NCBI GenBank assembly: GCA_030538085.1
Contig: JAUNUR010000003.1
Location: 23,281 to 87,280 of the forward strand
DNA: 64,000 nt
Direction of reading: 5' to 3'
From: Pseudomonadota bacterium
GTDB lineage: Bacteria > Pseudomonadota > Gammaproteobacteria > Burkholderiales > Burkholderiaceae_C
Part shown: positions 5,147-44,363 of the stretch, one piece after another
How the letters are laid out: each line of letters begins with the position of its first letter
Position numbering within the stretch: the first letter of the stretch is position 1
Position numbers and translations under genes: made by a program
The notes under the pieces: generated by a model
The model's input: the letters and a program-made list of their open reading frames with translations, nothing else
The model's database searches: none
What the model was told of the DNA's origin: nothing

Positions 5147-5171
5147 GGAAATTTCCTTGAATGCGGATAAA

Positions 5172-7438: not shown

Positions 7439-7472
7439 AGTCAATACTCCTTCTCTGCCAGATGTGCCGTGA

Positions 7473-8882: not shown

Positions 8883-8893
8883 GCGGGCGCTCC

Positions 8894-10268: not shown

Positions 10269-10428
10269 GGTTTGTGTCCTTGATATGAAGGTTGAAAATA
10301 ATTTGGGAAACTGGCGCGATGTTGAGCTTGCCTCGGCGCTCCATACCCCGTGGCCGGGCTGCGCGCTGGCTGGTCGAGCTTGATCGGCGAGCCTTTTTTT
10401 CGAGCCGCAGCGGACGGACTACCCAGCC

Positions 10429-11586: not shown

Positions 11587-11600
11587 GGATATTCCTGGGG

Positions 11601-12563: not shown

Positions 12564-12568
12564 GGCGA

Positions 12569-14949: not shown

Positions 14950-15352
14950 TCGATGGCATGCCTTTGATCTTTTGCGTCACTGGAGCCAATCGGCACGATT
15001 CAACCGTATTCGAGCAACTGGTCGATGCCCTGCCAGCCGTTGGCGGCAAGCCAGGCAGACCCAAGCGCAAGCCCGCCAAGCGCATGCGGACAAGGGCTAC
15101 GACTATCCGCGATGCTGGATTCATCTCAAGCGCCGAGGCATCAAAAGCCGCATCGCCCGCAAATGCATCGAGCACAACGACCGGCTGGGGCGTCATCGCT
15201 GGGTGGTCGAACGCACCCATGCGTGGCTGGCTGCCTTTGGCAAGCTGAGAACTCGCTTTGAACGCCGCATCGATATTCACCTGGCGCTGCTCAGTCTGGC
15301 TTGCTGCGTCATCTGCATTCGCAACCTTCCAGCGTTTTGTTGGTCGCTCTAA
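14950..15352 (+). pseudogene. IS5-family transposase 3' remnant with right end
   Basis: GMPLIFCVTGANRHDS, then after a frameshift near 15081 HADKGYD...RWVVERTHAWL...RFER; end TTTTGTTGGTCGCTCTAA. Confidence 0.88.
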
Positions 15353-15589
15353 ACCTAGAAACGGCAGTTGACCGCTCGCCATCCTTGGACAACTGGCATG
15401 AGCACTGACTTTCACAGCTTCGATCACATTCACCTGTTGGGTGAGCGCGCTATGCACCCAATCGCACCGCGCTGGCCGTGCCATGCGGCGTTGCTCGTCC
15501 TCGCAGGCACGAGCCTGCCGCGTCCTCGCGTCTTGCCTGGCACGCCCATCACGGCACGCTCGGGCGCATCCAACTGCCGTTTCTAGGCT
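15352..15589. mobile_element. 238-bp MITE-like element, copy 1
   Basis: Ends AACCTAGAAACGGCAGTTG / CAACTGCCGTTTCTAGGCT; highly similar same-length copy at 44126-44363. Confidence 0.88.
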
Positions 15590-17861: not shown

Positions 17862-18074
17862 ACGGCTCCGATGTTGATCGGGTCTTGGAACTGGAAGGCC
17901 TGCGAGCCGAAAACGCCCGCCTGATCGCGCTGCTTGAATCCCACGGCATCTCGTGGCGCTTGCCCTTGCCACAGCCGGTTATCGCTGTAAACCCAAAGCC
18001 GGAGCTGTCCCGGCTGTCCACTGCAGAGAAGGCGGCTCTGTTCCGGCGGTTGTTTCGTGGACGAACGGATGTCC
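17858..18074 (+). pseudogene. N-terminal remnant of a primase-domain/DEAD helicase protein (TOTE-conflict-system-like)
   Basis: LRAENARLIALLE coiled coil then EKAALFRRLFRGRTDV; breaks off into SecA sequence. Confidence 0.65.
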
Positions 18075-19046
18075 GCGCTGCACGCCTTCCACAAGGACGA
18101 GCACTACATCATCGCCTACGACGAGGAATCCAAGACCGACAAGGTGCAGATCGTCGATGAATACACCGGCCGCGTGATGCCCGACCGCTCCTGGGAGCGC
18201 GGTCTGCACCAGATGATCGAGGCCAAGGAAGGCGTGCAGATCACGGGTCAGCGCAAGACATTGGCCCAGATGACGTATCAGCGCTTCTTCAAGCGGTACT
18301 TGCTGTTGTCTGGGATGACGGGGACCGCACAGGAGATCGCGCCGGAGCTCAAGCGCGTTTACGACCTGGACGTGCTCCCCATCCCGACCAACAAGCCGAA
18401 CCAGCGGCAGTACTGGCGCCCGCGCTGCTGGCATACCGAAAACGAAAAATGGGCTGCCGTGGCACAGCAGGCCACCGAAATAGCCGCTCAGGGCCGTGCC
18501 GTGCTGGTGGGCACGCGCTCGGTGGAAGGCTCAGAAACGCTGAGTCAGTTGCTGACCGATCAAGGCATTGCCCACACGGTGCTCAATGCCCGCCAGGATG
18601 CCGATGAGGCAGAGCTGATCAAGCATGCCGGCGAAGCCGGCCATATCACGGTCGCCACCAACATGGCCGGGCGCGGTACCGACATCAAGCTGCCCCAGAC
18701 CGTGAAAGACAAAGGCGGGCTGCACGTGATCCTGACCGAATACCACGAAAGTGCCCGCATTGACCGGCAACTGTTCGGGCGCAGTGCCCGGCAGGGCGAT
18801 CCGGGAACGGTGCAGGCGCTGGTGTGCCTGGAGGACGATGCCTTTGTGCGTTATGCACCCACGGCAGCGCGTGGGGTGGCGCGGTTGACGCCACAAAACC
18901 GTGAAGTGCCGACCCCGCTATTGCAATGGCTGGTCAAGCTCACGCAACACACCGCCGAGCGCAACAACCGCAAGATCAGGCTCGATACGCTCAAGCACGA
19001 TCAAAAACGCAGAGAACAAATGGGATTCGCGGGGAATCAAGGCTAG
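18075..19046 (+). pseudogene. 3' half of a short SecA-like ATPase paralog
   Basis: IVDEYTGR, GLHQMIEAKEG, GMTGTA, VLNARQ, VATNMAGRGTDI, RIDRQLFGRSARQGDPG; N-terminal NBD1 missing; ends without the canonical SecA C-terminus. Confidence 0.85.
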
Positions 19047-19210
19047 TACGCCGACACGGAAATTTCGAAACGTGAAAGCGCGCCTTCGCACCGATGGCGG
19101 CGTTGCACATCCTCGCGATACCACCCGGTATCGCTACGGTGTGCGCCTTGCCCTCGGGCCGAATCCCATCACTTTCACCATGTTCCGAAATCTCCGTGTC
19201 GGCGTACTAG
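19043..19210. mobile_element. 168-bp CTAG-bounded MITE-like element
   Basis: CTAGTACGCCGACACGGAAATTTCGAAAC ... GTTCCGAAATCTCCGTGTCGGCGTACTAG, 29-bp inverted ends with 2 mismatches. Confidence 0.78.
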
Positions 19211-19266
19211 CACCGAACTCAGCCGGCGAGCCATTGGGCCTGTTCATCTGCATGCGCGAACTTGGG

Positions 19267-23625: not shown

Positions 23626-26246
23626 CAGAGCGTCCAGACGGGCAGGATGTTGTCGGCCAGATCGTCAATGCCGGTGATCTCGGCAAGGTCAAGCGAGCTG
23701 GAATGAAAAAAGTGATGATGGCCCGCGGGCGCGCCGTCCAGGCCAATCCCAAACATCTGCCAGACCAAGCGGCCCGCTAGCACATACTCGCCGTCGAAAG
23801 TGGCGTCATACATCCTGTCTGGGTATCCAGAAAACCTGGCATAACAGGTGGGGGCGAGGGGCGTCGCGCGCGGGGTGCGCGTGCTCGCGTCGCCGAACGT
23901 GTGCGTCGCTTGCGCGGGGCGCGGAATGCCGACGGCGCCGTAAGTGAACGACGCCTTGAAATCGCCGTCCGGGCTGAGCCCGAACGGCCACGATGGATGC
24001 ACCCTGTGCGACCAATTGCCGACGTTGGCAGACGACCACAGCGGCACCAGCCAAGGTAGGCCCGACGCTGGAGTCTGCGGCTGTACGCGCTGGTACAAGG
24101 TACGCACCAGCTCGGGCGCCACCATGTTGCGCATCACACGCGCGGCGCATACCGTATTGCTGCCGTCCCCCTCTAGCGTGTATTCGATCCAATGTCCGCG
24201 CTCCAGGCGCTCCGGGTCGAGATACAAGAGGTGCCTCACTAAACCAGTCACTACGCGCGCGTCGTTTGCGTCGCTGGCCGTGCTGCAGAACAGCCAGGAG
24301 GCTCCGCCTGGAAACACCAGTTCCGAGAACAAGCGGCGCGCACTTGTCTGGCCCGTCACACTTCCGTGATGATCGATTGACAGATCGACGAAGCGCAATT
24401 CGTTGCCACTGTAGAACGGGAACAGATGGCAGCGCCCCGCCGCGGAATGCTCGTGCACGCCTTCGTCAATGTGCACGCGGATGTCGATTTCGCTGGTCGC
24501 AACTTCGCTGCCCTGCCCGTCGACGAACTCGTAGAAATGGAGGCGCTCGCCGGCCCACCGCCCTGATCCGTCATCCAGGTGCTCGCCAACGGCACATGCT
24601 ACGCGCCGGCCGTCTTCAGAGAACCGGGCCGCCACGGGAATCGTCACAGGGCTGAATGGCAGCACCACGGCCCCGATCTCGCGTTGCGTCGCAAGAAAGT
24701 CCTCTGCCCGCCCCTCCCGCACCACCAGACGACACACGGCGCCTGGTGCTGGCGCCAGATGGATTGGCCCGTACTCCTCGTACATCAAGGTGCGCAGAGC
24801 CAGCTCTTGTCCGTGCGCAGCTTCGAGTACGTCAGCCTCACTGCCGGCGCAAGCGTCATCGCTTGGCAGGCCGGCCGTTGCACGGGCGCGGTTATACGAC
24901 GCTTCCCGCAGCTGCTTCTCGCGAACCCACGTCGCGACGGCTTTGGCGTCGGGCTGCGGGGCTCCAGAGGCGCACAACGCAGCCCCTAGGACGTGCGCGC
25001 GGGACGTTTGCACGCTCTGCTCAGTCTGCCGAACCACCTCGATGTCGGTGTGCCGGTAGCTGACCATTTCGCTGGTAGACCAGTGCAAGCTGTTCACCGG
25101 GGCGCACACGAAGATGCCTGGCGGGCCAGACACACTGATCGAGCCAAACCGTGGGTGCCGCCACGTCGTGCACCGCGCGTCGCGCGGGCCGGCGCTAGAA
25201 AACACCTGCGTGACCTCCCTCATCCGGCTCCCGGCGCCCAGGTCTGCGCGCGGCCACGTCCCAACCGTCATCACTTCGGCGCGGTACTGGGGCGAGCCGT
25301 CGGCGTCGCTGGCGGCTCGCTGGCCGAAGGTGTAGTCGACGCGCATGGTCGCGTCGTGCCCCGGCGAATTGACCCACCACTCGACAGCGTTCGCGCCCAG
25401 GGCCGCGCCCTTGGCGGTGTTGTTCGCATACAGGTTCTCGCCCACGCCCTCCGGCTGTCCAGCACGCGCGTACTGGCGCTCGGCCAGGGTCTGCCAGCCA
25501 GGGCGGAAATCCGGGCTGCCGTGCGCCATCTGACGTGCGCGCACGTTCTCGTCGCAGATCGCTTGGGCAAGGTCAGGTGTCCAGCCAGCCAGAGGTTGTG
25601 ACACCGGGGGCATGTCGAAGGTCGCACGGCGCCCGTTCGTGTTGAGTAACACGGCGTGCATCAACTCGAACGGCCACGGGCGCACCTGCGGGCGATGCGC
25701 GAACCACGCATCCTGTCGCCGCTCTTTGAGCAAGGGCAGCCAGCGACCGACGAACTGCGGCAGGCGCCGCCCGTTCTTCCACGCCCCTACCTCCGCCGCA
25801 TCAAGGTACAGCGCCGGCCAGTTCAGCGTCATGCTCACATCGTTGCCGCGCATGTAGGGCGAGGCCGAATAGACGGTGTGCAGGTATTCCGGCGTGTTGT
25901 TGTGGCGGTAGCGGTTGATGACCACGTAGGGGAAATCGCCGCCCGGCGTGCCCTTGCCGTCGGCTGTGGGCGGCAGGCCCCAGCCTCGCGGCGCACTCTT
26001 GCTGCGCGGCGTGATAACCATACCCTCGGGCACCCACGCCAGGCGGGACAACTGGTTCTGTGTAGCCTGCTCGTCCGCCGTCTGCACGTACAGCCGCTCG
26101 CCGACTTTGCGCGATGTCGAGCCATCAGCGTTACGCCGATGCAGCGCCGGCGCGCCCATCGTTTCCAGCATGCGCGCCTGCCGTTCGCCGGCCCGGCTGC
26201 CCGGCAGCGCGCGGTGGTGCGCGAAGCGCGAGTAGTCCATCGTCAT
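23625..26246 (-). CDS. Large phage protein with an internal CAP/SCP-like domain
   Basis: VGENLYAN...[15 protein letters not shown] resembles the CAP signature GENL...W.NS.GH. Confidence 0.7.
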
Positions 26247-26674
26247 TCCGGGTTGCTGAGCGACAGCGTGACCGGCACCGTCACCGTGTCGCCCGACGAG
26301 TACGCGCGCGGCGTGTCGAGCCGCTGGAGCGCCAGCAGCACGCCAGACCCGGTCGCCTTGCCAGCGCTCGAAATCACAGCGAAACCATGGACGGTCTTGT
26401 CCGCCGTCAGTTCGAACTGCGCGATGCTGGCCGAGTTATTAGTGGCCCCGCCCGCTGCCGCCGCCACCACCAGGCCAGGCCTCGCGGTAGCTGTATAGGC
26501 GGTCAACTCGGTCGAACGCCCAACGATGTTCGCGGCTGTGTCGTCGTCCTGGGGCGTGTAGTCGCCCTCGAACAACATGACGTGCCACGACGTGATCTGA
26601 GCGCGCCCCCGCAGGGCTACGTCCATCATGTAGTTTCGTCCTTCAGCGGGGTAGGTGATAAGCATCGGAGTCAT
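26243..26674 (-). CDS. Phage virion/tail protein
   Basis: [11 protein letters not shown]...[12 protein letters not shown]...[12 protein letters not shown]; coupled to the downstream gene. Confidence 0.7.
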
Positions 26675-26782
26675 CGCAAAGCGGTTGTGGCGGCACGGAC
26701 TCAGCGCCCGCGCGCAGCAGCGCAATACGCAACTCACGCTCCTCGCGCCGCAGCTCGTGCAACTCGCGATTGCGCGCTTCTT
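26643..26782 (-). pseudogene. Displaced 3' part of the holin-like gene (charged tail)
   Basis: [23 protein letters not shown]... is in frame with the 34448 ORF once the inversion is reversed. Confidence 0.85.
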
Positions 26783-29700
26783 ACCGTGCCCAAGGGCAGT
26801 ACGCGCGCCGATGTGGCGCGGGTGCTCAAGGACGCGGGAGCGCTGAGCAATAAACAGAAGGTGTTCGGGCTGGGCGAGCGCGCGGGGGAGGTGATGTTCA
26901 GCCGCAGCCCGGCTACCAAGACCGCTTATGAGGCGCGCATCGACGCCTTGTTCGCCGGCGGCAAACCGGCCCTCGATGGTGTCCGTGTGCTGGATCGTTC
27001 TGATGTGCTTGGCCTATTGGGCATGGGTGATGGGCCAGTGCATCTGGCCGTGGGCAAGGTGCGAACGTCGAAGCACCCGAACATGACGGCCGAGGTGTGG
27101 AAGAAGATTCCAGAATGGCTGGACAACCCGGCGGCGGTGTTCGACAGCGACACGGTTGCCGGCCGCTTGGTGGCTATCGCGCCCGAAGATGTCGGCGGCC
27201 AGCCGGTGCTAATGGTGATTGAGCCGAACGGGCAGCGACGTTCGGATGGCATGCGTGTGCACTTGCTGCAAAACGCCTACGACAAAGACGAAGGTGCGCC
27301 GCCGTTCGACAAGTGGTTCCGTGAGGGCAAGGCCCGCTACGTCAACCAAAAAGAATTCCCGGCTGTCTTGCGCGCCTCCGGACTCCAATTGTCCGGTACA
27401 GCTTGGCAAAACAAGCCGGGAACACCCAAGATTCTAACAGAGAAGAATCTTGCTGGGTGGCGGCGCGCCAACAATCCGGCGTTCAGCTTCGCCGGCGAGC
27501 GCGCCGCCACGGCCAACCAGCATGCGCTGGCCACTGCCCGCGAGCGCATCAACGCCGGCGAGGACGCCGAGACGGTGCGGCAGGACACCGGCTGGCACAT
27601 CGGCGCCGATGGCCGCTGGCGCTTCGAAATCAGCGACCACGATGCGAGCCTGAAGCTGTCGGTGGACGAGTTCCGCGCCTTCGCGCGCGGCGACCAGACG
27701 GTGATGCTGGGCGACCTGCTGGAGCACCCGGCGCTGTTCGCCGCGTACCCGCACCTGGCCGAGACGCCCGTGGGCACTAAGGCGGGTCGTGGCGCCAGCT
27801 ACAGCCAGCGCACGGGAAGAATCCTGATGGGCGGGTCTGTGAGAGCGGGCCAGTTCCAGTCGATCCTGCTGCACGAAATCCAGCACGACATCCAGACCGT
27901 GGAGGGCTTTGCCAACGGCGGCGCGGTCAGCCAGTTCAAGGGTGACCTGGCGGCGCAGCGCGACCAGTACCGGCGCCAGGCCGGCGAGGTGGAGGCGCGC
28001 AACACCCAGACCCGCGAGCACCTGACGCCGGAGCAGCGCCGGGCATTCACGCCGCAGAGCACGCAGGACGTGGCCGAGTCGGACGTGATCGTGACGTTCA
28101 ACGGAAAGGACGCCGCCGATGCGCCAGCGCCAGCCAATGCTGAGATGGCGCTGACACCGGAACTGGCGCGCCGCACCGCCCGCATCCAGAAAGCCGTGGA
28201 TGCCATTCACGCCAAGTGGACGAACGCGCCCGAGACGGTGGTGGTGGCCGACATGCGCGATGCCCGCATTCCGCGTGCCGTGCGCGCAGCGGATGCGCAG
28301 CAAAAGAGCCAGGGCGCCACCGGCGAGCCGGAAGGGTTCTTCTACGGCGGCAAGGTCTATCTGGTGGCGAGCCAGTTGAATGACGCCCAGGCCACCGCGC
28401 GCGTGCTGGCGCATGAAAGCCTGGGGCACCACGGGCTGCGCGGCGTGTTCGGCGACCGCTTGACGCCGATTCTGAACCGCGTGGCGCTTGCAAAGCGCGC
28501 CGAGGTGATTGCCAAGGCACGCGAGTACGGCCTGGTTGGCGAGGATGTGGACGTGGACACCGCGACCGACTCCGAGGTGTGGCGCTCGATGACGCCGGAG
28601 CAGCGCCAGCAGGCGGCCGAGGAGGTGCTGGCGGTGCTCGCGCAGGAGCAGCCTAACTTGCCGCTGGTGCGCCAGGCCATCGCCGTGATTCGAGCGTGGC
28701 TGCGCGAGCACATTCCGGGCTTCAACAACCTGCGAGTGACGGATGACGAGATCATCCAGCAGTACATCTTGCCGGCGCGGGGATGGGTGCAGCGCGGGCA
28801 GACGCGGCAGACAGCGGCCCACTCCGTTGCGGCCGCTTACTCAAGGGCAGGAAAGTCGCAATTCGAGGCTGAGGTTGACGCTGCGATTGCTGCGGGGCTG
28901 AAGGACGACAAGCAGACGCTGCGCCAGCAGGTTTCACTGGGTGCACGCACCCCCGCCGTGCTGCGTGCGCTCGGTGTGGATGACAAGCCGCTGTATACGA
29001 ACCGTGACTTGCTGGCGAAGATGCACATCGACCACGGGGTGCCGCGCAACCAGGTCAAGGATTTGGCTGACCTGCTGGCGAATCCGGCGATGGTCTTCGC
29101 GTCGGACACTCAGCCGGGGCGCTTCACGGTGGTGACCAGCGTTGTGGCGTCTGGCAAGCCGGTGGTAGTGGCCGTGGAGCCGAACGGGGCGTCGCAGGGC
29201 CTGGATGTTGTTTACCTTCCAAGCGCCTACCCAAAGAACAACGCGGATCGCGCGATCACCGGGTGGATCAGGTCTGGGCTGCTTCGCTACGCTGACAAAG
29301 GCAGAAGCCGAGGTCTCGCCACAAATGCCGGGCTCCAATTGCCAGGGGTGGTGTCGAGAGCCATCGGCTTCACGCCGGGCAAGTATAAGACTGAGGCGGA
29401 TGTTGCGCAATCCGCGCCGGAATCCGGCGCATCCTTGCTGGACAAGGCCGTGCGCCCCCGGCGCCAGGCCAGCAACTTCCTGCAAGCACGCGCCGCAGCG
29501 AAGGCGTTTCAAGGCAAGCCGCTGACCAATGACGCCACGGGCATGGTGGCGACGGTCAGCCGCAACAACCTGGACAAGATGCTGAGCACCAGCGCGGTGG
29601 CGAAGTCGGAAAGCCCGGCCAGCCACTCGCTGGCGGTAGCGAACCTGGACGCGCTGTTCAAAGATGCGGTGCTGGGATGGAGCAAGCCGGATCGGGATGG

Positions 29701-32491
29701 CGACGTGAACACGCTGGCCGTTCACCGATTCTTCGCCGTCATCATGAAGGATGGCCGCGCACAGTTGGCGAAGTTGACCGTGAAGGAAACGGCGCGCGCC
29801 GATCAGCCGAATCCGCTCTACACCGTGGAGGCGGTGGAGTTCAATGAAAAATCCCCCGCCGTCAAATGGGTGGACTCGACTGTTCGAGGCGATGGCCTCG
29901 ACCCGACTTCCGACCCGCCCGGCAGGGGAATCCTCAGTCTAGCCCAACAGGTCGAGGATTTCAACCGGGCGCGGCAAGCAGATCAACCTGGCCCGGCCAT
30001 GTTCTCCCGCTCGGCCAGCGCGATGGGCACGCTCACGCCCGCGCAGCAAGCCACCTGGGACAAGGTGGCCGCCCATTCCCAGCCGCAGACGTGGCCCCAG
30101 CGTCTGAAAGGCTTGCGCGCGAACATGGCGGTGCGGCTGAAAACCGCGCTGGTGGATCAGTTCGCCGCCATTGCCGAGTATGACCAGGGCGCCTATGTGA
30201 AGGCGCGCATGAGCCGCGCGAGCGACGGTGCGCTGGAGGCGGCATTGCTGTATGGCAAGCCTTTCCTGCGCGATGGGGTGCCGGACGTGGATGTGAAGGA
30301 TGGCGGCTTTGCCAAGACGCTGGCGAACCTGGGCGGCGAGGTGGATCGCTTCATGTGGTGGGTGGCGGCGCAGCGGGCCAGCAAGCTCAAGAGCGAGGGG
30401 CGGGAGAACCTGTTTCAACACCAGGACATCGAGAATTTTCTTGGGCTCAACGCGGGCAAGATGGACGATGGCCGCTCGCGCGCGCTGGTGTTCGGCCAGG
30501 CGCTGTCGGAGCTGAACGCCTTCAACGACGCGATGCTGAAGATCGCGCAGCAATCAGGGCTGATGGATGAGGCGGCGCTGGCGCTGTTCAAGGATCAGCC
30601 CTATGTGCCGTTCTACCGCGTGATGGAGAGCGGCGAGATGACGGGCGCTCGCTTCAGCTCGGGCCTGACGAACCAGCGCGCCTGGCACAAGCTGCAGGGC
30701 GGCAAGGACAAGCTGAACGCCGATTTGCTGCAAAACCTGATGCAGAACTGGAGCCATGTGCTGGCGGCGAGCGCGCGCAACCGCGCGGCACTGGCGACGA
30801 TGGACGTGGCGGCGAAGATGGATGTGGCCTACCGCGTGAACGCGGACACCAAGGGCGCGGTGAAGGTGATGCGAGATGGGGTGACGGAGCACTGGGCGAT
30901 TGAAGACCCGCACCTGCTGACGGCGGTGAGCGCGCTGCACTACGTGCCGTCGCCGCTGATGGCGCCGCTGGCGGGGGCCAAGCGGCTGTTGACCTGGGGC
31001 GTGACGGTGAACCCGACGTTCAAGATTCGCAACCTGATTCGGGATTCGGTGTCGGCCATCGCGCAGACGGAGCTGGGCTACAACCCGGCCTCGAACGTGG
31101 CGGGGGCGTGGAAGCTGACGGCGGCTGACAGCCAAATTTACGCCTCGATGCTGGCGTCGGGCGGGGTGATCAAGTTCGGCACGATGGAGAACACGCAGCG
31201 GTTGCGCGACCAGGTCAAGCGCCTGGGTGGCGAGGTGCTGGATGAGGGCGGCTGGAAGAAGCTGAGCGGGCAGATGCGCGCGCTGTACGACGCCTATCAG
31301 GAGGTGGGCGACCGCATGGAGAACGTGAACCGGGTGGCACTGTACGAGCAGTTGCGCAAGAAGGGGCACGATCACGCCGAGGCGAGCTTCATGGCGCGCG
31401 GCTTGATGGATTTCAGCATGAGCGGGGCGCACCCGGTGGTGCGGTTTCTGGTGCAGTCGGTGCCGTTCTTGAATGCGCGCATGCAGGGCTTGTACAAGCT
31501 GGGGCGCGCGGCGGGCGAGAACCCAGCGCGCTTTGCGGCGGTGACGGGCGCGGTGGCCATGGCCAGCCTGGCGCTGCTGGCTTTGTTCGGAGACGACGAG
31601 GATTGGAAGAAGCGCGAGGACTGGGACAGGGACGCTTACTGGTGGTTCAAGATCGGCGACAAGGCCTTCCGCATCCCGAAACCGTTCGAGGTGGGGGCGA
31701 TTGGCACCTTGGCCGAGCGCACGGCCGAATGGATGTTCAGCAAGGAGATGACGAACCGGCGCATGATGGAGCGGCTGGGCCACATGCTGGCGCAGACGTT
31801 TGCCTTCGACCCGGTGCCGCAGGCGTTCAAGCCGCTGCTGGACGTGTACGCCAACAAGGACAGCTTCACGGGCCGGGCCATCGAGGGCATGGGCGATGAG
31901 CGGCTGCGCCCGCAGGATCGCTACAACGAGCGCACCAGCGAGGTGGCCCGCCTGCTGGGGCAACTGGGACTGCCCAACCCGGCGCAACTGGTGCAGGGCG
32001 ACTGGCAGGCGCTGTCTCCGAAGCAGATCGACCACTTGCTGCGGGGATACTTCTCGTGGGTGGGCACCACGGGCACGGCGGCGCTGGACCTGGCCGCGCG
32101 CCCGATGCTGGGCCGCGGTGATCGGCCCGCGATGCAGTTGCGCGACACCTTCGTGGTGGGCAACTTCGTGGAGAGCCTGCCCACGGGGTCGAGCCGCTAT
32201 GTGACGGTGATGTACGAGCAGGCGCGCGAGGCGCAGCAGGCCTGGGCGTCGTACCAGGCGGCGCTTCAGGCGGGCGACACACAGGGCGCGGCGCGCATCA
32301 TGACCAGCGACGGCGACAAACTGCGCCAGCGCCTGCGTCTGGCGCATGCCACACGGAGGCTGTCGGAGTTGAACGCGCAGGCCAAGCGCGTGCAGGCCAG
32401 CGCCAGCATGGATGGAGCGGCCAAGCGCGAGCGGCTCGACGAGATCGGGCGGCTGCGCCATGAGGTGGCGAAGGGGGCGCTGGGGGTGTGA
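26783..32491 (+). pseudogene. 3' part (1902 codons) of a large polyvalent phage protein, separated from its start by the inversion
   Basis: Two MuF-C-like segments, LPD23-like [20 protein letters not shown], zincin motifs HEIQH and HESLGH, LPD3-like [13 protein letters not shown]38-like [18 protein letters not shown]; the predicted N-terminal 223 aa of ORF 26114 are antisense to the tail and holin-tail sequences. Confidence 0.85.
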
Positions 32492-32496
32492 TGGGC

Positions 32497-32784
32497 TTAC
32501 AGGTGCTGATCGGCGTCTTGGCGCTGGTGCAGCACGCGGATCACGGCCAAGCGTTCGGGGGTGTCAAGAAAATAGACCACATGCGAGCCGCACAGGTATT
32601 TCTGCAAGTCGGGCAGCACCTGGGCGGGGCGGCCCTGCTTGATGCCCGCCGCCAGTGCATGGCAGGCATCCCGAATGGCATCGGTGTAGCCGTCGGCTTG
32701 ATCGGGCCCCCATCTGTGGGCGCTGTAATCCCAAATTTCGTCGATGTCGGCTTGTGCCGCTGGCGAAAATGCAATGGCTTTCAT
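32497..32784 (-). CDS. parE: ParE-family toxin
   Basis: FSPAAQADIDEIWDYSAHRWG...HVVYF...IRVLHQRQD. Confidence 0.92.
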   Translation of the reverse strand: MKAIAFSPAAQADIDEIWDYSAHRWGPDQADGYTDAIRDACHALAAGIKQGRPAQVLPDLQKYLCGSHVVYFLDTPERLAVIRVLHQRQDADQHL

Positions 32785-33029
32785 TGCGCCGCGAGCCCGG
32801 CGCGCTTGCGGGCCTTGAACGCCTCGAAGTCGAAGGGGCGCGGCTCGCCAGATTGCAGGCCCGCAGTCAGCGCCTCTTGCAGCGCTCGCACCTTGGCTTC
32901 GTGTTCTTCCAGCAGCCGCAGGCCCGCTCGAACCACGTCGCTGGCGGAGCTGTAACGCCCGCCTTGCACCTGGGTGTCGATGAATTGGGTGAAGTGCGGC
33001 CCGAGGGCAACGGAGGTGTTGCGGTTCAT
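32781..33029 (-). CDS. parD: ParD-family antitoxin (ribbon-helix-helix)
   Basis: NTSVALGPHF...GRYSSASDVVRAGLRLLEE...FDFEAF; ATGA overlap with parE. Confidence 0.92.
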   Translation of the reverse strand: MNRNTSVALGPHFTQFIDTQVQGGRYSSASDVVRAGLRLLEEHEAKVRALQEALTAGLQSGEPRPFDFEAFKARKRAGLAAQ

Positions 33030-33056
33030 GAGGGTTCCTCTTGGTGTGCCAAAAAT

Positions 33057-33073
33057 ATACCAAGAATTGGTAA
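33057..33073. promoter_or_regulatory. Putative parDE autoregulatory operator
   Basis: TACCAA-GAA-TTGGTA inverted repeat about 30 bp upstream of parD. Confidence 0.5.
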
Positions 33074-33074
33074 C

Positions 33075-33242
33075 GCTTGCGCGGCAGAACGCCGTGTTCA
33101 AGAACTGCGGCGTGAGAAGCGCGAGCTGGTCAGGCGTGGAGCGAGCCGCGAACAGGTCAAGGCCAAGGAGGATCAGATCACGATGGTCATGACCCGCTTC
33201 AACGAGATGGCGCAGCGCACTACCAGCGTATCAACTCGCTGA
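33075..33242 (+). pseudogene. Orphan C-terminal tip of another polyvalent-protein allele
   Basis: ERRVQELRREKRELVRRGASREQVKAKEDQITMVMTRFNE with no start; helical tail reminiscent of the end of the upstream protein. Confidence 0.5.
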
Positions 33243-33393
33243 GGGTGGCAAAGATAGAGCACAGCACGAAGGCGATAATCCCGACGCCCCAAAACGTCTG
33301 TGCTGCTTCTTCCCCATGAAAGGCCGCTACGACTGGCCCGGCAAGCAGAGCCAGCACAGCGATCACGGCAAAGAACCCGGCGATGGCGGTCAT
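33220..33393 (-). CDS. Small two-TM membrane protein (57 aa)
   Basis: Two hydrophobic segments; AAGG upstream of the ATG. Confidence 0.6.
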   Translation of the reverse strand: MTAIAGFFAVIAVLALLAGPVVAAFHGEEAAQTFWGVGIIAFVLCSIFATLSELIRW

Positions 33394-33403
33394 CGTCGGC
33401 CTT

Positions 33404-33639
33404 AGAGCGTGCTGCTGGCTGCGGCCAAGCATCTGGATTCGGAGCATGTCGGCAACAGAGGTGCCTCAGCCGGTCTGTTCTACGCGCTCGGCGAGGCCAT
33501 CGAGGAACTGATCGACCCTGCTGCGCTGGTGCAATTCGCGGCGCGTCACATCCAGCGGTACGAGCAGTGCAGGGCGGAACTGTACGAGCAGATCAAGCGT
33601 GACAACGCGCGGTTCATTGAAGAGCTTGGCAAAACCGAG
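33404..33639 (+). repeat. 236-bp repeat, copy A (carries the apparent native 3' end of gene X)
   Basis: Reverse complement of 37798-38033; no mismatch seen by eye. Confidence 0.92.
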
Positions 33640-33666
33640 TCAGTGAAGACGGAGCCAGTGCCAGCA

Positions 33667-33687
33667 TAGGGTTTGCCTCGCCGCAGG
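33667..33687 (+). promoter_or_regulatory. TAGGGTTTGC phage motif, copy 1
   Basis: TAGGGTTTGCCTCGCCGCAGG; differs from 34414-34434 at 2 of 21 positions. Confidence 0.6.
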
Positions 33688-33698
33688 GGGCGGGGCGG

Positions 33699-34040
33699 TT
33701 ACGCCGCGAATGCAAACCGTTCGTCATTGAAGATGTCAATGAGTGTCTGCGGGCTTTTGAGGGCGACGGCAATGAGCGTGCGCGCGGCGCCGGTGGGCTG
33801 GCGCCGGCCTTGTTCCCAGCCTTGAAGGGTGCGCACGGATACACCGAGCAACGCGGCAAACTGAGACTGCGATAGGCCCGAACGCCGCCTTGCGTCGATG
33901 ACGGGCGAGTAGGCCACGCTGGTTTTGCCGGCCGCCATTTCGCGCGCGGCCTGAAGCAGGTCGGCCTCGATGTCGCGGCTCGCTTCCCAGGAGGCAAGCT
34001 CAGCGTCGGTCAGTGGTTTGGTTGGCTTTTTCCGTGGCAT
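33699..34040 (-). CDS. higA: HigA-type HTH antitoxin
   Basis: ARRRSGLSQSQFAALLGVSVRTLQGWEQGRRQPTGAARTL. Confidence 0.9.
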   Translation of the reverse strand: MPRKKPTKPLTDAELASWEASRDIEADLLQAAREMAAGKTSVAYSPVIDARRRSGLSQSQFAALLGVSVRTLQGWEQGRRQPTGAARTLIAVALKSPQTLIDIFNDERFAFAA

Positions 34041-34335
34041 CACGTAACTCCTTGAGGGTGGACGCCTTGAGCGTGTCCAACTTCGCTTTGGCGTACATGG
34101 TCAACAACACCACTTCACCGGATTGCAGGCGGGTGAAGTAGATCACGCGCACGCCGCCCGATTTGCCCGATCCGGCGCGGCTCCATCGCACTTTGCGCAC
34201 GCCGCCGGATTCGGCCACCACGTCGCCAGCGTCCGGGTGCTTGGCAATGTGGGCGCAGAACGCGCCGCGCTCTTCCTCCGTCCAGTAGTAAGGCCAGATG
34301 CGCTGGAAGTGCTGGCTTTCGACGACCGTGAGCAT
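34000..34335 (-). CDS. higB: HigB/RelE-type toxin
   Basis: PDAGDVVAESGGVRKVRW...GKSGGVRVIYF...LLTMYAK; toxin-first order. Confidence 0.9.
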   Translation of the reverse strand: MLTVVESQHFQRIWPYYWTEEERGAFCAHIAKHPDAGDVVAESGGVRKVRWSRAGSGKSGGVRVIYFTRLQSGEVVLLTMYAKAKLDTLKASTLKELRDATEKANQTTDRR

Positions 34336-34346
34336 GGGCATGATTA

Positions 34347-34363
34347 TACGCCAATGGCGTATG
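34347..34363. promoter_or_regulatory. Putative higBA operator
   Basis: ATACGCCA-A-TGGCGTAT palindrome just upstream of higB. Confidence 0.55.
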
Positions 34364-34413
34364 ACGCGCTGGTGGTGAGGTGGTCTACCGGCGTGCTGGC
34401 ACCGGCTCCCCTG

Positions 34414-34434
34414 TAGGGTTTGCCGCGCCGTAGG
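34414..34434 (+). promoter_or_regulatory. TAGGGTTTGC phage motif, copy 2 (upstream of the holin-like gene)
   Basis: CCCCTGTAGGGTTTGCCGCGCCGTAGG; motif starts 34 bp before the ATG at 34448. Confidence 0.6.
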
Positions 34435-34447
34435 TGTCTGGTGCCCA

Positions 34448-34651
34448 ATGGTCACCATGAACACCGAGAGCATGGACACGATCAGCGCGGTTGGGGCAAA
34501 GACCGCCGTGGCCGCTGGCGCCACGACAACCGCGTGGGCGTGGCTGACGCAGGAGACGCTGTTCGGCTTTGTGGGCGCGACGGTCGCCGTCCTCGGTTTG
34601 CTGATTACCGCGTACGTCAACTGGCTGACGCAGCGCCGTCATGCGCGGGAA
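34448..34651 (+). pseudogene. 5' part of a holin-like membrane protein gene (split by the inversion)
   Basis: Two TM segments ending in NWLTQRRHARE; continues in frame into 26780-26643 when the inversion is reversed (113 aa). Confidence 0.78.
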
Positions 34652-37400
34652 CGGGCTCGCCCGTGTCGAAGTTCAGCGCCTCGTGTTTCCCAATGAACAC
34701 CGCGCCATCTTTAACGCCGACCTGCTCCGCATCCCCAGGAGCCGTGCCGATAGACAACGGCACATCCTTCTTCGGGTTTGCCACGGGGGCAAGCGCTGGC
34801 GCCGCGCCGCTGGCCTGGACATCGTGCGCATCAATCGCCCGCACCAGATCAGCCGTGCGTGGATAAGCCTTGGGGTCAATTCCCAGCGCGCGCGCCACCT
34901 TCGAAGCGCCCAACATGCTGGCGCGCCAGCCCTGGGGTCTGGAAACTGTCGCCGTGCTCGCTGGCTGCGTGGTCGCCGGATCAGCCCGCGCCCCATTGGC
35001 GCGGTCGGCGGCATCAATCTCCGCCACCAGATTCGCCAGACCCCGGTGCGCACGCGGGTCAATGCCCATATCACGCGCCACCTTCGCCGCACGCAAGTTG
35101 TTGCTGCGCCAGTTGGCCGGGCGCTCGGGCGCTACCCCAGCGGCTTGAACACCACCGTCTGCTCCGGCTGCGGGTACAGCCGGGGCGGTGGCCGCATCGC
35201 CTGCTGCTGGCGCAACCGCTTGGCCTGGCGCGGCTTTGGTTTGCTGATCAGTTGCGGTGTCCGCGCTGGCGTCTTGTGCATTGTTTGCGGTCTGTACAGT
35301 GGCATCGGCTTTGGCTACACTGAAGTCTCCTTGTGGAGGCACCATGCCTACCGAACCGCTTTGGGCGTAGGTCGGAGGAGTCGCAGAGTCACTTTGTGAC
35401 GGCATCAAGACGCGCGTAGGCGTCTTCCACAAGGTCTTTGTCGTCAGCTCCCCGCGCTTTTCACGCACCTCCTCCACGTAGCCTTTGCGCAGGTTGTAGC
35501 TCAAGTCCTGGCGCAAACGCTCAGCCACAGGCTCGGCCCTTCCCGCCGACTGCACGGCTGACCCCGCCTGCTGCGTGCCCGGCTTGGGCGCCAGCGCATA
35601 CCCACCATCCACCTCGATGGCCGCATACTGCCCGCCGTGCTGCGCCGTCGCCAGATTGGCTTGAGCCTTGGTGAACGGCTCGCCCCTCGCGTTGCGCATC
35701 AAACCGTCTTCACCCGCCACCAGCGCCAGCCGGCCGCCCTGGGCCAACGGCGTTGCCGGCTGCGAAATCACTTCGTTTTGTATAGCTGCCTGCGCCTGAC
35801 TGGCAAGGGCTAAAGGCTGGTTTTGTGCAAAATCCTGAGCGCCGCGCAGCGCGGTATGCGCGCCGCTGTCCACCGCCTGCGCCGCCACCGCCGACAGCGG
35901 GCCGGCGGCGGGGTCGATGCCCATCGCTTCAGAGGGGCGCATCGGCGCTGACGCTTCGGCCTGGGGCTCTGCGCTGCGATAGCTGGCCAGTCGATCCAGC
36001 GCCTGCGCCTGATTCAGATCGACCTCGTCGCTGGCCTCAGGACGAATCAACGACCGATCAAGAAACTCCTGCAAGGGGGCAGCTTGCGGGTGAATGGCCG
36101 CATTCAGGCGCGCCTGCTGCTCGGCGGCCGCTGCTTCCTCGGCCAGCCTGGCCTGCTCCATCGCCCGGCTGCGGCCAACCGGCTGCGTGGCCGCCTGCCA
36201 CGCTTTTTGCCCGGCGAACGTCATGCCGCTTTGCCCCAGCGACGACAACGCCTCCAGCGTGGCGTTCTTGGCATCCCACTCGCCAGAGGCAATGCCCTCG
36301 CCCAGAAACTCCCCGGCAAACTCGCCCGCCGGCTCCAGCGCCGCCACGCCCGCGTTGCGCGCCAGATTGCGCCCGCCGCTGGTGGCCGCCTTGAACGCCT
36401 CATCCGCGCCCATGCGCGCGGCCAACTCAGGCGACTTCAGGGCCGCTTTCACCGCCGCCTTGTCGGCCATGTCCACGCCCATATCGGCCAACGCGCGGCC
36501 CGCCGCCGCCTTGGCCGGGGCCTTCAGCAGCGCACCGCCAACGCCCATCGTGGCCACATCCACCGCGCCGATCACGCCGCCCTTGACCGCCGCCTCGCCC
36601 AGCAGCGCATCGCCCCGCCCGCGCAAGAACGCCTGCACCGCGCGCGTGTCCTGCGGGTCGATGCCGGCACTCTGCAGCGCCTCCATCACCTTGCCGCCAC
36701 CTTCGATGGCCGTGTTGCCCGCCGCCGCGCCGCCCCAGGCGCCAGCCAGCGCGCCACCAGCGCCGCCCACTGCCGCGCCAGCCGCCGTGCCAGCGCCCGG
36801 CAGCACCGACCCCACCAGGCCGCCCGCCGCCGCGCCCGCCTTGCCACCCGCCCACCCGCCCGCCAGCATGCCGCCCATCGGCGCCACTATGTTCGGCGCC
36901 TGCTCCACCACGCCGCTGCCCATGGCATAGGCGTTGCGCGCCACCGACACCAGCCCCGCGCCCACCGTGGGCGCCTCGCGCCAGTCCTTGGCCACCTCAC
37001 CCAGCACACCCTTGATCCCGCCGCCGATGCCCTCGCCCTGTTGCCAAGCGGCCATCAGCTCGGCGCCTTCCTTGGTGCCAGGATTGGCGCGCGCGTAGGC
37101 GTCGGCCTCGGCCACCTTGCGGGCCGCGCCCTCCACATCGCCAGCGGCCAGGCCAGCGGTAATGCCGATGTTCTGCTTGGCTTTTTTCCAGCCGCGCGTC
37201 AGCGCCCAGTCGCCTTGCGCGCCGGCCGCATCACCGGCTAGGCCCACCAAGCCGCCAGCGGTCTGCGGAGCCGTCGGCAAATTGAACGCCTGCTCGTAGG
37301 TCATCGGCCCCGACGGCGGACTCGCTCCGGCAGCCGGCGGCACGGGCGACGCCGGCTTCAGGTTGAACGCTTCTTCGTAGGTGAACGAGTCCTTGCCCAT
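34650..37400 (-). pseudogene. 5' part (917 codons) of the large polyvalent/internal virion protein
   Basis: TYEEAFNL/TYEQAFNL repeats, Gly/Ala-rich TM-like region, internal repeat VARDMGIDP/VARALGIDP; ends ALNFDTGEPV and joins TVPKGST at 26783. Confidence 0.85.
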
Positions 37401-37432
37401 GCGCGCCAGTCTCCCGGCGCGCTAGCGATCAA

Positions 37433-37448
37433 GCAAACCCTACGGGGG
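37433..37448 (-). promoter_or_regulatory. TAGGGTTTGC phage motif, copy 3 (upstream of the polyvalent gene)
   Basis: CCCCCGTAGGGTTTGC on the minus strand, 33 bp before the ATG at 37400. Confidence 0.6.
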
Positions 37449-37457
37449 CGCTACACC

Positions 37458-37482
37458 AAAAACAAAGGGCGCCGAAGCGCCC
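37458..37482 (-). terminator. Rho-independent terminator
   Basis: GGGCGC-TTCG-GCGCCC followed by TTTGTTTTT on the minus strand. Confidence 0.75.
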
Positions 37483-37514
37483 CGATGTGCATGCTGAAAG
37501 TGCTTGATGCCGAT

Positions 37515-37586
37515 CTAGTGGGTCGTGACGTACCAAGTCACGCCAGCAGCGGCGATCACGAAGACGATGAGCGCGGTGATGATCAT
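37515..37586 (-). CDS. 23-aa single-TM peptide (below the ORF track cutoff)
   Basis: MIITALIVFVIAAAGVTWYVTTH; AGGA RBS; ATGA overlap with the upstream gene. Confidence 0.6.
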   Translation of the reverse strand: MIITALIVFVIAAAGVTWYVTTH

Positions 37587-37777
37587 GATGGTTTCCTAAG
37601 TTTCCACGACAGCGTCAAAAGTATAGGGCAAATGGCAAACAGGGTCACGATCTCCCCAATGCTCAACGGGCTGTGGCCGGTCAGCCCCACCACGCCGCCA
37701 ATGAAGGCGGACGCGGCAATCGTGTCCAGAAACCGGGCCAACCCCTCCTTCTGCTCCTTGCTGTACTTGGAAGCCAT
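37583..37777 (-). CDS. Small two-TM membrane protein (64 aa)
   Basis: KEGLARFLDT then two hydrophobic segments. Confidence 0.7.
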   Translation of the reverse strand: MASKYSKEQKEGLARFLDTIAASAFIGGVVGLTGHSPLSIGEIVTLFAICPILLTLSWKLRKPS

Positions 37778-37797
37778 GCCTGAAAGTCTACGCCTAG

Positions 37798-38033
37798 CTC
37801 GGTTTTGCCAAGCTCTTCAATGAACCGCGCGTTGTCACGCTTGATCTGCTCGTACAGTTCCGCCCTGCACTGCTCGTACCGCTGGATGTGACGCGCCGCG
37901 AATTGCACCAGCGCAGCAGGGTCGATCAGTTCCTCGATGGCCTCGCCGAGCGCGTAGAACAGACCGGCTGAGGCACCTCTGTTGCCGACATGCTCCGAAT
38001 CCAGATGCTTGGCCGCAGCCAGCAGCACGCTCT
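37798..38033 (-). repeat. 236-bp repeat, copy B (within gene X)
   Basis: Matches 33404-33639 in inverted orientation. Confidence 0.92.
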
Positions 38034-38200
38034 GCATCAAGCCATCGTCACCGCCTCGGATCACCTCGCCCATGATCTCGATCATCGCCTTGGCACCCTC
38101 CTGGTTGCTTTCGGCGTAGCTCGCTCCATCGGTATACACGTCGAAGTAGTCGATATCCGTCTCGGGGCCTGTGGCCGGCGTGGTGATGCACGACACACGG
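37798..38200 (-). pseudogene. Phage hypothetical gene X, 5' part; apparent native 3' end is at 33640-33669
   Basis: PETDIDYFDVY...AKHLDSEH...; after 37798 it reads through into an unrelated gene. Confidence 0.55.
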
Positions 38201-38204
38201 GGGT

Positions 38205-39117
38205 ACACGCGCTTCCGCGCGCTTGGAATCAAGCCCAGGCCGATGCATTCGACTGGCAGGAATCAGCGCGGCTCTACGCCATCGCCACAAGGACACCCGG
38301 CGCAGGCCACCTGATTGACGACGCCGTGACGATCTACCTCAAAGAGCGTGTGCCTCACTTGAAGGCTGGGTTGAACACAGCCAGAGAACTGGCGCTGATG
38401 CTGCCGTTCTACCATGGGCGTCCGCTAGAGGCGTTGGCCGACGTGTGCAAGGCGTACCGCCTGAAGGGGGTCAAGGAGAATGGCTCGCCGCTGTCGCCCG
38501 CCACGCTGCGCAACCGCATCCGCTACCTGACCGCTGCCTGTCGGTACGCATGGAAGCAGCACGGCATGGGCGACGGCGATCCAGCCGCCCGCGTGGTGGC
38601 GCCCACCGTGCAGAACGAGCGCCACCAATACCTGACGCGAGAGCAGGTGCTGATGATTTGCCGCCAGTGCCGAAACAAGACCGCACGGCAGGCGATCCGC
38701 ATCGCCTTTTATTCAGGCATGAGGCTAGGCGAGATTCTGGTGGCCGAGATTTCCGGACAGGCGTGGGTGTTGCGCGACACGAAGAACGGAAACCCGCGCA
38801 TCGTGCCCATGCACCCAAAGGCCGCAGCGGCCGCGCGGGCATTCAAGCCATGCCCAAAAATCACCATTCAGCGGGCGTGGGAGAAAGCCAGGGACAGGGC
38901 AGGATTTCATGGGCACACCTTCCACGATCTGCGCCACAGCGCCGCCACGGCGATGGCAAATGCAGGGGTGGATTTGTTCACGCTTGGCCGCGTGCTGGGG
39001 CACAAGGACAGCCGCAGCACAGCCCGCTACAGCCACCACCACATAGACACGCTAGCCGCTGCTGTGGGGAAGATTGGTCAAAAATCCCCAAACCAGCCAC
39101 AAAAAAAAGCGGCCTGA
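38205..39117 (+). pseudogene. Phage tyrosine integrase, N-terminally truncated with catalytic residues intact
   Basis: SGMRLGE (R), DTKNG (K), FHDLRH, LGH, TARY; starts abruptly at LPRAWNQAQADAFD with no native start. Confidence 0.88.
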
Positions 39118-39150
39118 GCTATCTTTTGAATAGCTACAGGCCGTTATCTG

Positions 39151-39240
39151 TGGCGGAGAAGGAGGGATTCGAACCCTCGATACGGTAAACCGTATACCGG
39201 ATTTCGAGTCCGGCGCATTCGACCACTCTGCCACCTCTCC
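39151..39240 (-). tRNA. tRNA-Ser (CGA)
   Basis: GGAGAGGTGGCAGAGTGG...GGACT-CGA-AATCC, long variable arm, GGTTCGAATCC, encoded CCA end. Confidence 0.97.
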
Positions 39241-39296
39241 TGCTTTCGTGTCGAATCGCGTATTTTAGCAGGAGCCGAGCCTGCCGCCACGGCGCC

Positions 39297-44125: not shown

Positions 44126-44363
44126 AACCTAGAAACGGCAGTTGACCGCTCGCCATCTTTGGGCAACCCGCATGAACGCTGACTTTCATGGCTTCGATCA
44201 CGCTCACCTGTTGGGTGAGGGCGCTATGCACCCGATCACACCGCGCTGGCCGCGCCATGCGGCGTTGCTCGTCCTCGCAGGCACGAGCCTGCCGCGTCCT
44301 CGCGCCTTGCCTGGCACGCCCATCACGGCACGCTCGGGCGCATCCAACTGCCGTTTCTAGGTT
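44126..44363. mobile_element. 238-bp MITE-like element, copy 2
   Basis: Perfect 19-bp inverted ends AACCTAGAAACGGCAGTTG. Confidence 0.88.

Follow-up and report, generated by a model that had tools for sequence, protein, structure and literature searches.

A balanced 7.9-kb inversion splits the genes for a polyvalent virion protein and a holin in a defective prophage remnant

Within a decayed prophage, the genes for a giant polyvalent virion protein and for a holin are each broken at the ends of one and the same 7867-bp segment (26783-34649, no strand assigned), which raises the question of whether the segment is turned by a recombinase as a regulatory switch or was inverted once, by accident, as the prophage decayed. 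A preliminary description of the 64-kb window (the whole stretch of DNA analysed here) had left both possibilities standing. The two junction strings that it quoted are present exactly as given, and when we flipped 26783-34649 in silico both genes were rebuilt with zero bases gained or lost, just as it had claimed, the TT/AA microhomology allowing the breakpoints to slide by 2 bp. One restored junction lies in a 2826-codon open frame that encodes, from its first ATG, a 2819-aa protein with the join between residues 917 and 918 (EPV|TVPK; example sequence GACACGGGCGAGCCCGTTACCGTGCCCAAGGGC), and the other lies in a 136-codon frame that holds a 113-aa protein and crosses the sequence GCGCGCTTCTTCCCGCGCATG. 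GC skew inside the segment has the opposite sign to that of its flanks. Moreover, the independent Logan assembly of run SRR24915823 has both present junctions in the inverted form, on two contigs (L002 and L003) that are 100% identical to the window, run unbranched through both junctions (contigs drop rare variants) and break only at a 236-bp repeat; the second orientation is seen in none of the contigs, these being assemblies from which rare variants have been dropped. The inversion is thus real, reciprocal and base-precise.

The 5' part of the larger gene (codons 1-917; 34650-37400, minus strand), recognised by a match to phrog_22591 and by its similarity to Pseudomonas phage vB_PaeP-D14S, today continues into 10 foreign codons and a stop at 34617, giving a predicted product of 927 aa. 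The 3' part (codons 918-2819; 26783-32491, plus strand), assigned from its domains and from a D14S match, is now left with neither its own start codon nor its own promoter. The N-terminus of the protein has 48.6% identity to the N-terminus of a 3812-aa D14S protein, and the rebuilt protein matches it again at residues 1151-1369, such that a single D14S protein, whose gene is directly followed by a holin gene, matches both sides of the junction. The rebuilt protein has two MuF_C domains together with LPD23, LPD3 and LPD38; like polyvalent proteins it is very large, multidomain and of the MuF/LPD type, is encoded among virion genes and is homologous to large phage proteins. A first junction-spanning search had returned only MuF_C modules, starting 35 aa past the junction, as if the join lay in an unconserved linker, a view that was overturned by exhaustive HMMER searching with the 230 aa of the N-terminal side alone as query. 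All nine of the distant homologues found in this way continue across EPV|TVPK without a gap, and G39, E40, P41, V44 and G47 of the alignment at the junction are invariant among them. Judged by these alignments, the rebuilt big protein is the ancestral state. A by-product of the search was a module of roughly 60 aa that is conserved among polyvalent proteins and for which the scan gave no Pfam family.

The first 67 codons of the holin gene, in which the hydrophobic stretch lies (34448-34649, plus strand), now run into 15 foreign codons to form an 82-aa ORF (34448-34696), and the 3' part of the gene (codons 68-113, a charged tail; 26643-26782, minus strand) ends with a stop 13 nt before a Gp80-like podophage fibre protein gene (26243-26629, minus strand), which lay directly downstream of the holin gene in the ancestral order. 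The rebuilt 113-aa protein matches the holin profiles phrog_4237 (E 6e-9, residues 9-94) and phrog_20 (E 1.5e-5), both of which span the 67/68 junction, and weakly resembles the D14S holin (E 1e-5). The restored sequences are supported at both joins, by nine collinear homologues at the one and by the holin profiles at the other. A word search with the restored holin found no homologue except its own truncated form, and a collection of 15 billion proteins, Logan gene calls included, holds truncated holin forms and not the rebuilt sequence; the 50-aa cluster representative P0032 proved to be unrelated, a clustering artefact. Neither an endolysin nor a spanin gene was found beside the holin gene. 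Beyond the Gp80-like fibre gene, virion genes encoding proteins of 873, 148, 145, 77, 710 and 338 aa follow down to 19267, and for the 873-aa fibre protein a search of 50,697 phage records gave no match.

Since both breakpoints are intragenic, one in the polyvalent protein gene and one in the holin gene, a single event disrupted the two genes at once, in agreement with the earlier reading. That it "switches off" these genes is too strong an expression: both are truncated, and the N-terminal part of each persists behind its own upstream TAGGGTTTGC motif, the big protein keeping 917 aa and the holin 67 aa, the latter including its hydrophobic stretch (residues 40-58). The three exact copies of this motif reported earlier are indeed present, at 37433-37442 (minus strand; 33 nt upstream of the big gene ATG, just after a terminator-like hairpin), at 34414-34423 (plus strand; 34 nt upstream of the holin ATG) and at 33667-33676 (plus strand), and become co-oriented after the flip. 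Also inside the inverted segment are a ParD-ParE toxin-antitoxin pair (32497-33029, minus strand) and a pair made up of a RelE/HigB-like toxin and an HTH antitoxin (33699-34335, minus strand). Before the inversion the genes would have stood in the order big gene, ParDE, integrase/X, HigBA-like pair, holin.

What remains of the phage around these genes bears directly on whether a switch could be of any use. The host element is a remnant within a strain-specific island of 37 kb at tRNA-Ser. The stretch from 2119 to 39150 is entirely absent from related isolates, and a search of sequencing runs with host DNA, which suggests wastewater as a habitat, likewise listed only related organisms that are without the island. 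At the right end of the island the tRNA-Ser(CGA) gene (39151-39240, minus strand) adjoins a tyrosine integrase gene (38230-39117, plus strand), which encodes the sole recombinase in the window. Between 2119 and 39150 we found no genes for terminase, portal, capsid or replication; no endolysin was found in the element, and a search for a second att copy was negative. Of the features of an intact temperate prophage, the integrase and the tRNA-Ser are present. A SecA-like gene has been cut down to profile positions 283-594 of 806, and the same element has other illegitimate junctions, among them a perfect 236-bp duplicated gene fragment. We conclude that the element is a defective phage remnant, having only an integrase, the big protein gene, the holin gene and fibre genes, and that its source prophage was podophage-like (Hollowayvirus/F116-like, GP4-like). 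No uninverted close relative of this prophage was found in genome contigs, which gave one distant match; viral contigs gave two distant MuF_C matches and none for the holin, and an exact restored-junction 33-mer is absent from metagenome contigs.

The 236-bp repeats are, as had been described, real, 100% identical and inverted (33404-33639 and 37798-38033), and become direct after the flip. They are an internal fragment of an ORFan gene, here called X, for which we found no homologue. Arm A (33404-33639, plus strand) is followed by a natural-looking 9-codon end of X in an 86-aa ORF (33409-33669), and arm B (37798-38033, minus strand) is preceded by a natural N-terminal part of X and followed by non-coding-like sequence (171-aa ORF, 37681-38196). 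The duplicated fragment has sharp edges, and neither copy of X is whole. For the stretch between the two arms (33640-37797) the orientation is that of the deposited 110-kb draft contig, its only source.

We then turned to the crossover sites themselves, where the preliminary description had seen in the 2-bp TT/AA core a signature of serine recombinases. This interpretation is not supported: an overlap of 2 bp or more arises by chance in about 19% of cases (18.6% of random breakpoint pairs in the same DNA, P = 0.19); statistically the overlap is unremarkable, and the "core" is an ambiguity in breakpoint position and nothing more. Dyad symmetry within each site is limited to 3-7 of 13 positions, and identity to hixL to 8-9 of 26, which agrees with the earlier remark that the flanks are not hix-like. 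The same description had noted the lack of a serine recombinase in the 64-kb window, and this stands: Pfam searches of all sizeable ORFs revealed no resolvase or invertase, tblastn of the window with a Hin probe gave a best E of 1.6, and there is no large serine integrase gene (450-700 aa) in the window to go with sites that are without dyad symmetry. The two sites are nevertheless more alike than expected. In the inverted register they are identical at 16 of 26 and 27 of 60 positions, against a codon-phase-matched null of 7.6 +/- 2.3 and 16.3 +/- 3.5, respectively (P ~0.002 and ~0.008, both conditional on at least 2 bp of microhomology). Codon periodicity was considered as the source of this similarity and rejected, the excess surviving the phase-matched null; the island's tyrosine integrase was likewise rejected as the agent, as the best ungapped match of either site to 39115-39245 is 13/26, with a random mean of 13.2. 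The above-chance similarity fits recombination at short imperfect homology, and the junctions have the marks of such an illegitimate event: they lie in unique sequence, combine microhomology with patchy similarity, are without a recombinase site and are crossed by unbranched contigs.

Taken together, these observations suggest that the locus probably records one recent inversion by illegitimate recombination, made as the prophage decayed, and not a regulatory device, so that of the options in the preliminary description the evidence favours the one-off illegitimate recombination. Two short, imperfectly similar sequences in inverted orientation, one in the holin gene and the other in the big gene, would have recombined without a recombinase, with the crossover at their 2-bp exact overlap; the reciprocal exchange would have cut both genes, and the inverted form would then have become fixed in the strain. 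We read the inversion as one decay step of an already defective remnant because the element is such a remnant and has other illegitimate junctions. It is likely to be recent, since the promoterless 1902-codon fragment is still stop-free and the 236-bp copies are 100% identical; mechanism, recency and order of events are what we infer from these traces. No regulatory or biological consequence is evident because the element was already without genes for particle making. The locus thereby offers a clean, fully reconstructible case of prophage dismantling, in which a balanced inversion truncates two late genes after earlier deletions, and a caution for similar scans, given that a base-precise rearrangement with a 2-bp overlap (19% by chance) can be mistaken for site-specific recombination.

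Two other explanations deserve to be weighed against illegitimate inversion, and we consider each of them unlikely. The first is that a site-specific recombinase inverted the segment at TT/AA. The enzyme would be a serine invertase, or else a large serine integrase with attB/attP-like pseudo-sites as its targets, and would be encoded elsewhere in the genome or have been lost with the phage, the event being a reversible phase switch or one-way. The sites joined by large serine integrases have little in common besides the central dinucleotide, which we counted in favour of this explanation. A reciprocal exchange in perfect balance, in which no base is gained or lost and the overlap is 2 bp, is also what a site-specific recombinase would yield, and the excess similarity between the sites could equally mean that an enzyme encoded outside the window recognises them weakly; both points count against the illegitimate reading. 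Opposed to them are the frequency of such overlaps among random inversions, the low dyad symmetry of the ancestral sites where dimer-binding recombinases need it, the poor hix likeness, the lack of a serine recombinase in the window, the unbranched passage of contigs through both junctions, and an element without head and lysis enzyme genes, in which nothing is left to regulate.

The second, for which we see a similarly small chance, reaches the same breakpoints through a 10,005-bp circle. Here the 236-bp repeats, direct at that time, would have recombined to excise a circle with the 236-bp fragment, the big gene, ParDE and two genes for small membrane proteins. The circle would have re-entered the element at the holin gene, through one illegitimate crossover inside the big gene, and a later RecA flip between the 236-bp repeats, by then inverted, would have given the present order, or, as a variant, 33640-37797 is already flipped in the true order of the cell. 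In its support, block algebra shows that flipping 33640-37797 makes gene X whole beside the integrase. The integrase gene, X, the toxin-antitoxin pair and the holin and fibre genes then form one natural block, interrupted in the holin alone by a circularly permuted 10,005-bp insert; in addition, the Logan contigs stop exactly at the repeat, and the orientation of the 4.2-kb segment lacks independent confirmation. However, a non-replicating circle must re-integrate illegitimately and then undergo an extra flip, which makes two rare-or-extra steps against one for direct inversion, and the deposited 110-kb contig has the orientation used here.

A narrower form of the recombinase explanation, in which the breakpoints are weak sites for an enzyme encoded outside the window and the 7.9-kb segment is a reversible intragenic switch, we regard as very improbable; if true, the flip would gate an injected polyvalent protein together with the holin, and the phage remnant would be a domesticated one. 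This phase-switch reading finds neither site features nor a serine recombinase in the window, and since the element is already a defective remnant, there would be nothing functional for a lysis-and-ejection switch to control. Finally, an assembly artefact hiding an uninverted genome can be dismissed almost entirely, for although this DNA comes from only a single strain and a single dataset, and was deposited as a draft contig, each junction sits in unique sequence, away from any repeat that could mislead an assembler, the NCBI and Logan contigs hold the inverted junctions at 100% identity, and the 15-billion-protein collection contains the truncated and not the rebuilt holin.

Returning to illegitimate inversion in a decaying prophage, we compared the locus with known systems. 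Similar to cryptic or defective prophages that have decayed by RecA-independent short-homology recombination, the element has lost modules and has several novel junctions and truncated genes, and it shares with them microhomology plus patchy similarity at the crossover and a single orientation, as seen in contigs. It differs from usual prophage decay by deletion or IS insertion in that a balanced inversion, with a mechanism that is deduced, hits two genes. The Hin, Gin, Cin and Pin switches (Salmonella; phages Mu, P1 and e14) resemble it as phage-borne inversions of a few kb with a 2-bp overlap, but here there is no invertase gene in the window, no dyad-symmetric 26-bp sites and no hix or gix likeness, the breakpoints fall in unrelated genes and not in alternative tail-fibre C-termini or a promoter, and both products are destroyed instead of swapped. 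Intragenic invertons are defined by a flanking inverted-repeat pair together with both orientations in the reads of one culture, and a described example spans 57 bp (Chanin et al., bioRxiv 10.1101/2023.03.11.532203). Like them, our inversion has breakpoints within coding sequence and changes reading frames; unlike them, the segment is 7.9 kb long, its flanks are alike at 16 of 26 positions and the second orientation is unseen in contigs. As for the interrupted gene, its rebuilt product shares MuF_C, LPD23, LPD3 and LPD38 with large polyvalent virion proteins (Iyer et al. 2017, PMC5512222), and as in the Hollowayvirus D14S the big gene stands among late genes just upstream of the holin gene, although here, unlike in D14S, the inversion has split the gene and the surrounding phage is defective.

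We found that reverse-complementing the segment 26783-34649 (7867 bp) in silico rebuilds two genes, as the preliminary description had proposed, and both of its junction strings were located, at 26781-26784 and 34648-34651. The flip yields a minus-strand open frame of 2826 codons, whose first ATG starts a 2819-aa protein (residues 915-921, EPV/TVPK), together with a 136-codon frame encoding a 113-aa protein. In the present arrangement the 5' part of the big gene (34650-37400, minus strand) ends after 10 foreign codons to give a 927-aa product and its 3' part (26783-32491, plus strand; 1902 codons) is without its own start codon, while the small, holin gene is divided between 34448-34649 (plus strand, first piece) and 26643-26782 (minus strand, second piece). 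GC skew is positive within the segment and negative in both flanks, as expected if a minus-strand gene block was turned over. A word-based search with a junction-spanning query returned only MuF_C modules, starting 35 residues beyond the junction. An exhaustive HMMER search, made with only the N-terminal-side 230 residues, which the window encodes unaltered, matched 22 proteins, mostly large, and all 9 of the 22 that were retrieved run past the query end into sequence coded across the inversion. When the rebuilt big protein was aligned with eight homologues no gaps were seen at the junction, with G39, E40, P41, V44 and G47 invariant, and because the homologues align in this way the inversion is exact to the codon. 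Pseudomonas phage vB_PaeP-D14S (Hollowayvirus) has one 3812-aa protein that matches rebuilt residues 11-545, coded outside the segment, and 1151-1369, coded inside it, and in this phage a holin gene directly follows the big gene. The rebuilt 113-aa protein matches the holin families phrog_4237 (E 6e-9, residues 9-94) and phrog_20, both matches covering the junction at residue 67/68. D14S and the holin profiles thus agree with the homologue alignment in pointing to the restored form as the ancestral one.

The '2-bp core' of the crossover is the number of positions over which both breakpoints slide together. It had been taken for the signature of a serine recombinase, a reading that we do not retain because random breakpoint pairs from the region overlap by at least 2 bp in 18.6% of cases (n=200,000). 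The flank similarity previously called loose is indeed imperfect, with 16 of 26 bp identical at the crossover when the ancestral sites are set in inverted register (pattern GCGnGCnnnTTnCCGnGCnnnAnGGC; null 7.6 +/- 2.3), and it also exceeds chance: against a codon-phase-matched null, and given at least 2 bp of microhomology, P is about 0.002 over 26 bp and about 0.008 over 60 bp (27 identical; null 16.3 +/- 3.5), the true P being somewhat larger since window size and shift were picked after looking. Patchy short homology is associated with RecA-independent illegitimate recombination, and we suggest that the inversion arose by such recombination here. An unknown enzyme acting on weak sites would, through a balanced exchange, leave a product that looks the same; no dyad symmetry was found in the ancestral sites (3-7/13), and the island's own att/tRNA region shows no likeness to them (13/26, the random mean). 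In agreement with the preliminary description, the flanks are not hix-like (each site 8-9/26 against hixL) and no serine recombinase was found encoded in the window.

The element also holds a sharply bounded 236-bp inverted repeat with identical arms (arm A, 33404-33639, plus strand; arm B, 37798-38033, minus strand), which comes from the interior of an ORFan gene, X, for which no homologue was found. Arm B is preceded by the natural N-terminal part of X (GC3 0.80) and followed by sequence that is non-coding-like in that frame (GC by codon position 0.53/0.76/0.55), whereas arm A follows a stop codon and leads into a natural-looking 9-codon end, so that X is incomplete at both arms as assembled. 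Before the inversion the copies were direct, as had been pointed out, lying 10,005 bp apart and flanking a big-gene module. We infer that this pattern is the one expected if two identical tandem prophage copies each lost a different part by deletion, in which case the region of X kept in both would become the repeat. However it came about, at least two more illegitimate junctions lie in the element, no further than 12 kb from the inversion. The identity of the repeats, together with the 1902-codon 3' fragment, which is promoterless and still without stop codons, argues for a recent inversion. Homologous recombination between the present inverted repeats could flip 33640-37797, which would restore a complete X beside the integrase and leave the holin and big genes broken. 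For the orientation of this 4.2-kb piece the deposited assembly, a 110-kb NCBI contig, is the sole source, since the independent Logan contigs of run SRR24915823 match the window at 100% identity but end precisely at the repeat and nowhere else (L003, about 19.2 to 33.4 kb, crosses the left junction; L002, 33610-37827, crosses the right). Were the piece flipped in reality, the same breakpoints would describe an insertion of 10,005 bp, circularly permuted, in the holin gene, a structural alternative that we consider unlikely; we follow the deposited orientation.

The domains of the big protein (two MuF_C, LPD23, LPD3 and LPD38) indicate that it belongs to the polyvalent proteins, which Iyer et al. 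(PMC5512222) predict to be virion-packaged and to enter the host along with the injected DNA, and its C-terminal third is common to large virion proteins of many podophages. A conserved module of ~60 aa, here at restored residues about 875-940 (minus strand 34650-34780 joined to plus strand 26783-26850), is shared by many large polyvalent proteins, where it immediately precedes MuF_C or other modules; it has no Pfam match and may be an undescribed domain or linker. In the ancestral order a Gp80-like fibre protein (Pfam PF23140, podophage GP4) and more virion proteins lie downstream of the holin. Two toxin-antitoxin pairs, ParDE (32497-33029) and a RelE/HigB-like toxin with an HTH antitoxin (33699-34335), lie within the segment, where they separate the big gene from the holin and are coded on the other strand from the late genes. 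In contigs of related isolates and of wastewater/sludge metagenomes, matches to the window are confined to 37-2118 and to the part from 39151 on, so that 2119-39150 is a 37-kb strain-specific island at tRNA-Ser(CGA) (39151-39240), with a tyrosine integrase (about 38230-39117) also at its right end. The longest integrase ORF (375 aa, from 37990) overlaps X on the opposite strand (37990-38230) and has a non-coding look over its first ~90 residues; translation probably begins near 38230 instead, as the phrog_1 match starts at residue 31 of the 295-aa version. The left third of the island (2286-14178) is a small biosynthetic cluster with a PLP-dependent decarboxylase, an AMP-dependent ligase, two acyl-CoA dehydrogenase-like genes, a MatE exporter and two KAS III-like genes. 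Between 2119 and 39150 we found no genes for terminase, portal, capsid, replication or endolysin; a second copy of the tRNA-derived att sequence was likewise not found, and a SecA-like gene (18057-19046) looks truncated, matching only positions 283-594 of the 806-position phage family profile phrog_32805. These gaps, and the absence of the island from relatives, indicate that the element is not an intact prophage. After the SecA-like ORF, between convergent genes, lies a 33-nt, 91% complementary hairpin (19042-19211). A MITE-like element of ~236 bp with terminal inverted repeats CTAGAAACGGCAGTTG ... CAACTGCCGTTTCTAG occurs at 15352-15587 and 44126-44361 (93.6% identical) and partially at 62481-62527, with several further copies in related isolates.

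Three exact copies of TAGGGTTTGC are present (33667-33676 and 34414-34423, plus strand; 37433-37442, minus strand; ~0.1 expected by chance), two of them in the extended form CCCCnGTAGGGTTTGC. The start codons of the big protein and the holin each have a copy 33-34 nt upstream, one of these copies following a terminator-like hairpin, and the motif is a candidate phage-specific late promoter or regulatory site. In the big gene the 5' 917 codons retain their upstream region (terminator-like hairpin, CCCCCGTAGGGTTTGC, 33 nt, ATG), and the first 67 codons of the holin, hydrophobic stretch included, retain their own copy of the motif 34 nt upstream. One event did truncate both genes, but with these regions kept the earlier wording that both were switched off is overstated.

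The element cannot make particles and so has no lysis or ejection function left to regulate, and the Logan contigs, which are insensitive to rare variants, show no branch towards a strong second orientation; that the segment is a real switch seems to us highly improbable. An assembly artefact is very unlikely, since the Logan contigs carry both junctions and truncated products of 82, 927 and 1901 aa are on record, while the restored holin is absent from a collection of 15 billion proteins. Of the interpretations offered in the preliminary description, its fallback of a one-off illegitimate recombination is the one that stands, as the inversion failed the tests made for the features that define Hin/Gin-type switches and integrase secondary-site events, and its sites failed those for large-serine-integrase att sites. 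Compared with the intragenic invertons of Chanin et al. (bioRxiv 10.1101/2023.03.11.532203), the present segment is far larger (7.9 kb), is without clear flanking inverted repeats and was seen in one orientation only. Prophage decay by illegitimate recombination is the class that suits it best, and it makes a tidy and fully reconstructed case of a known process.
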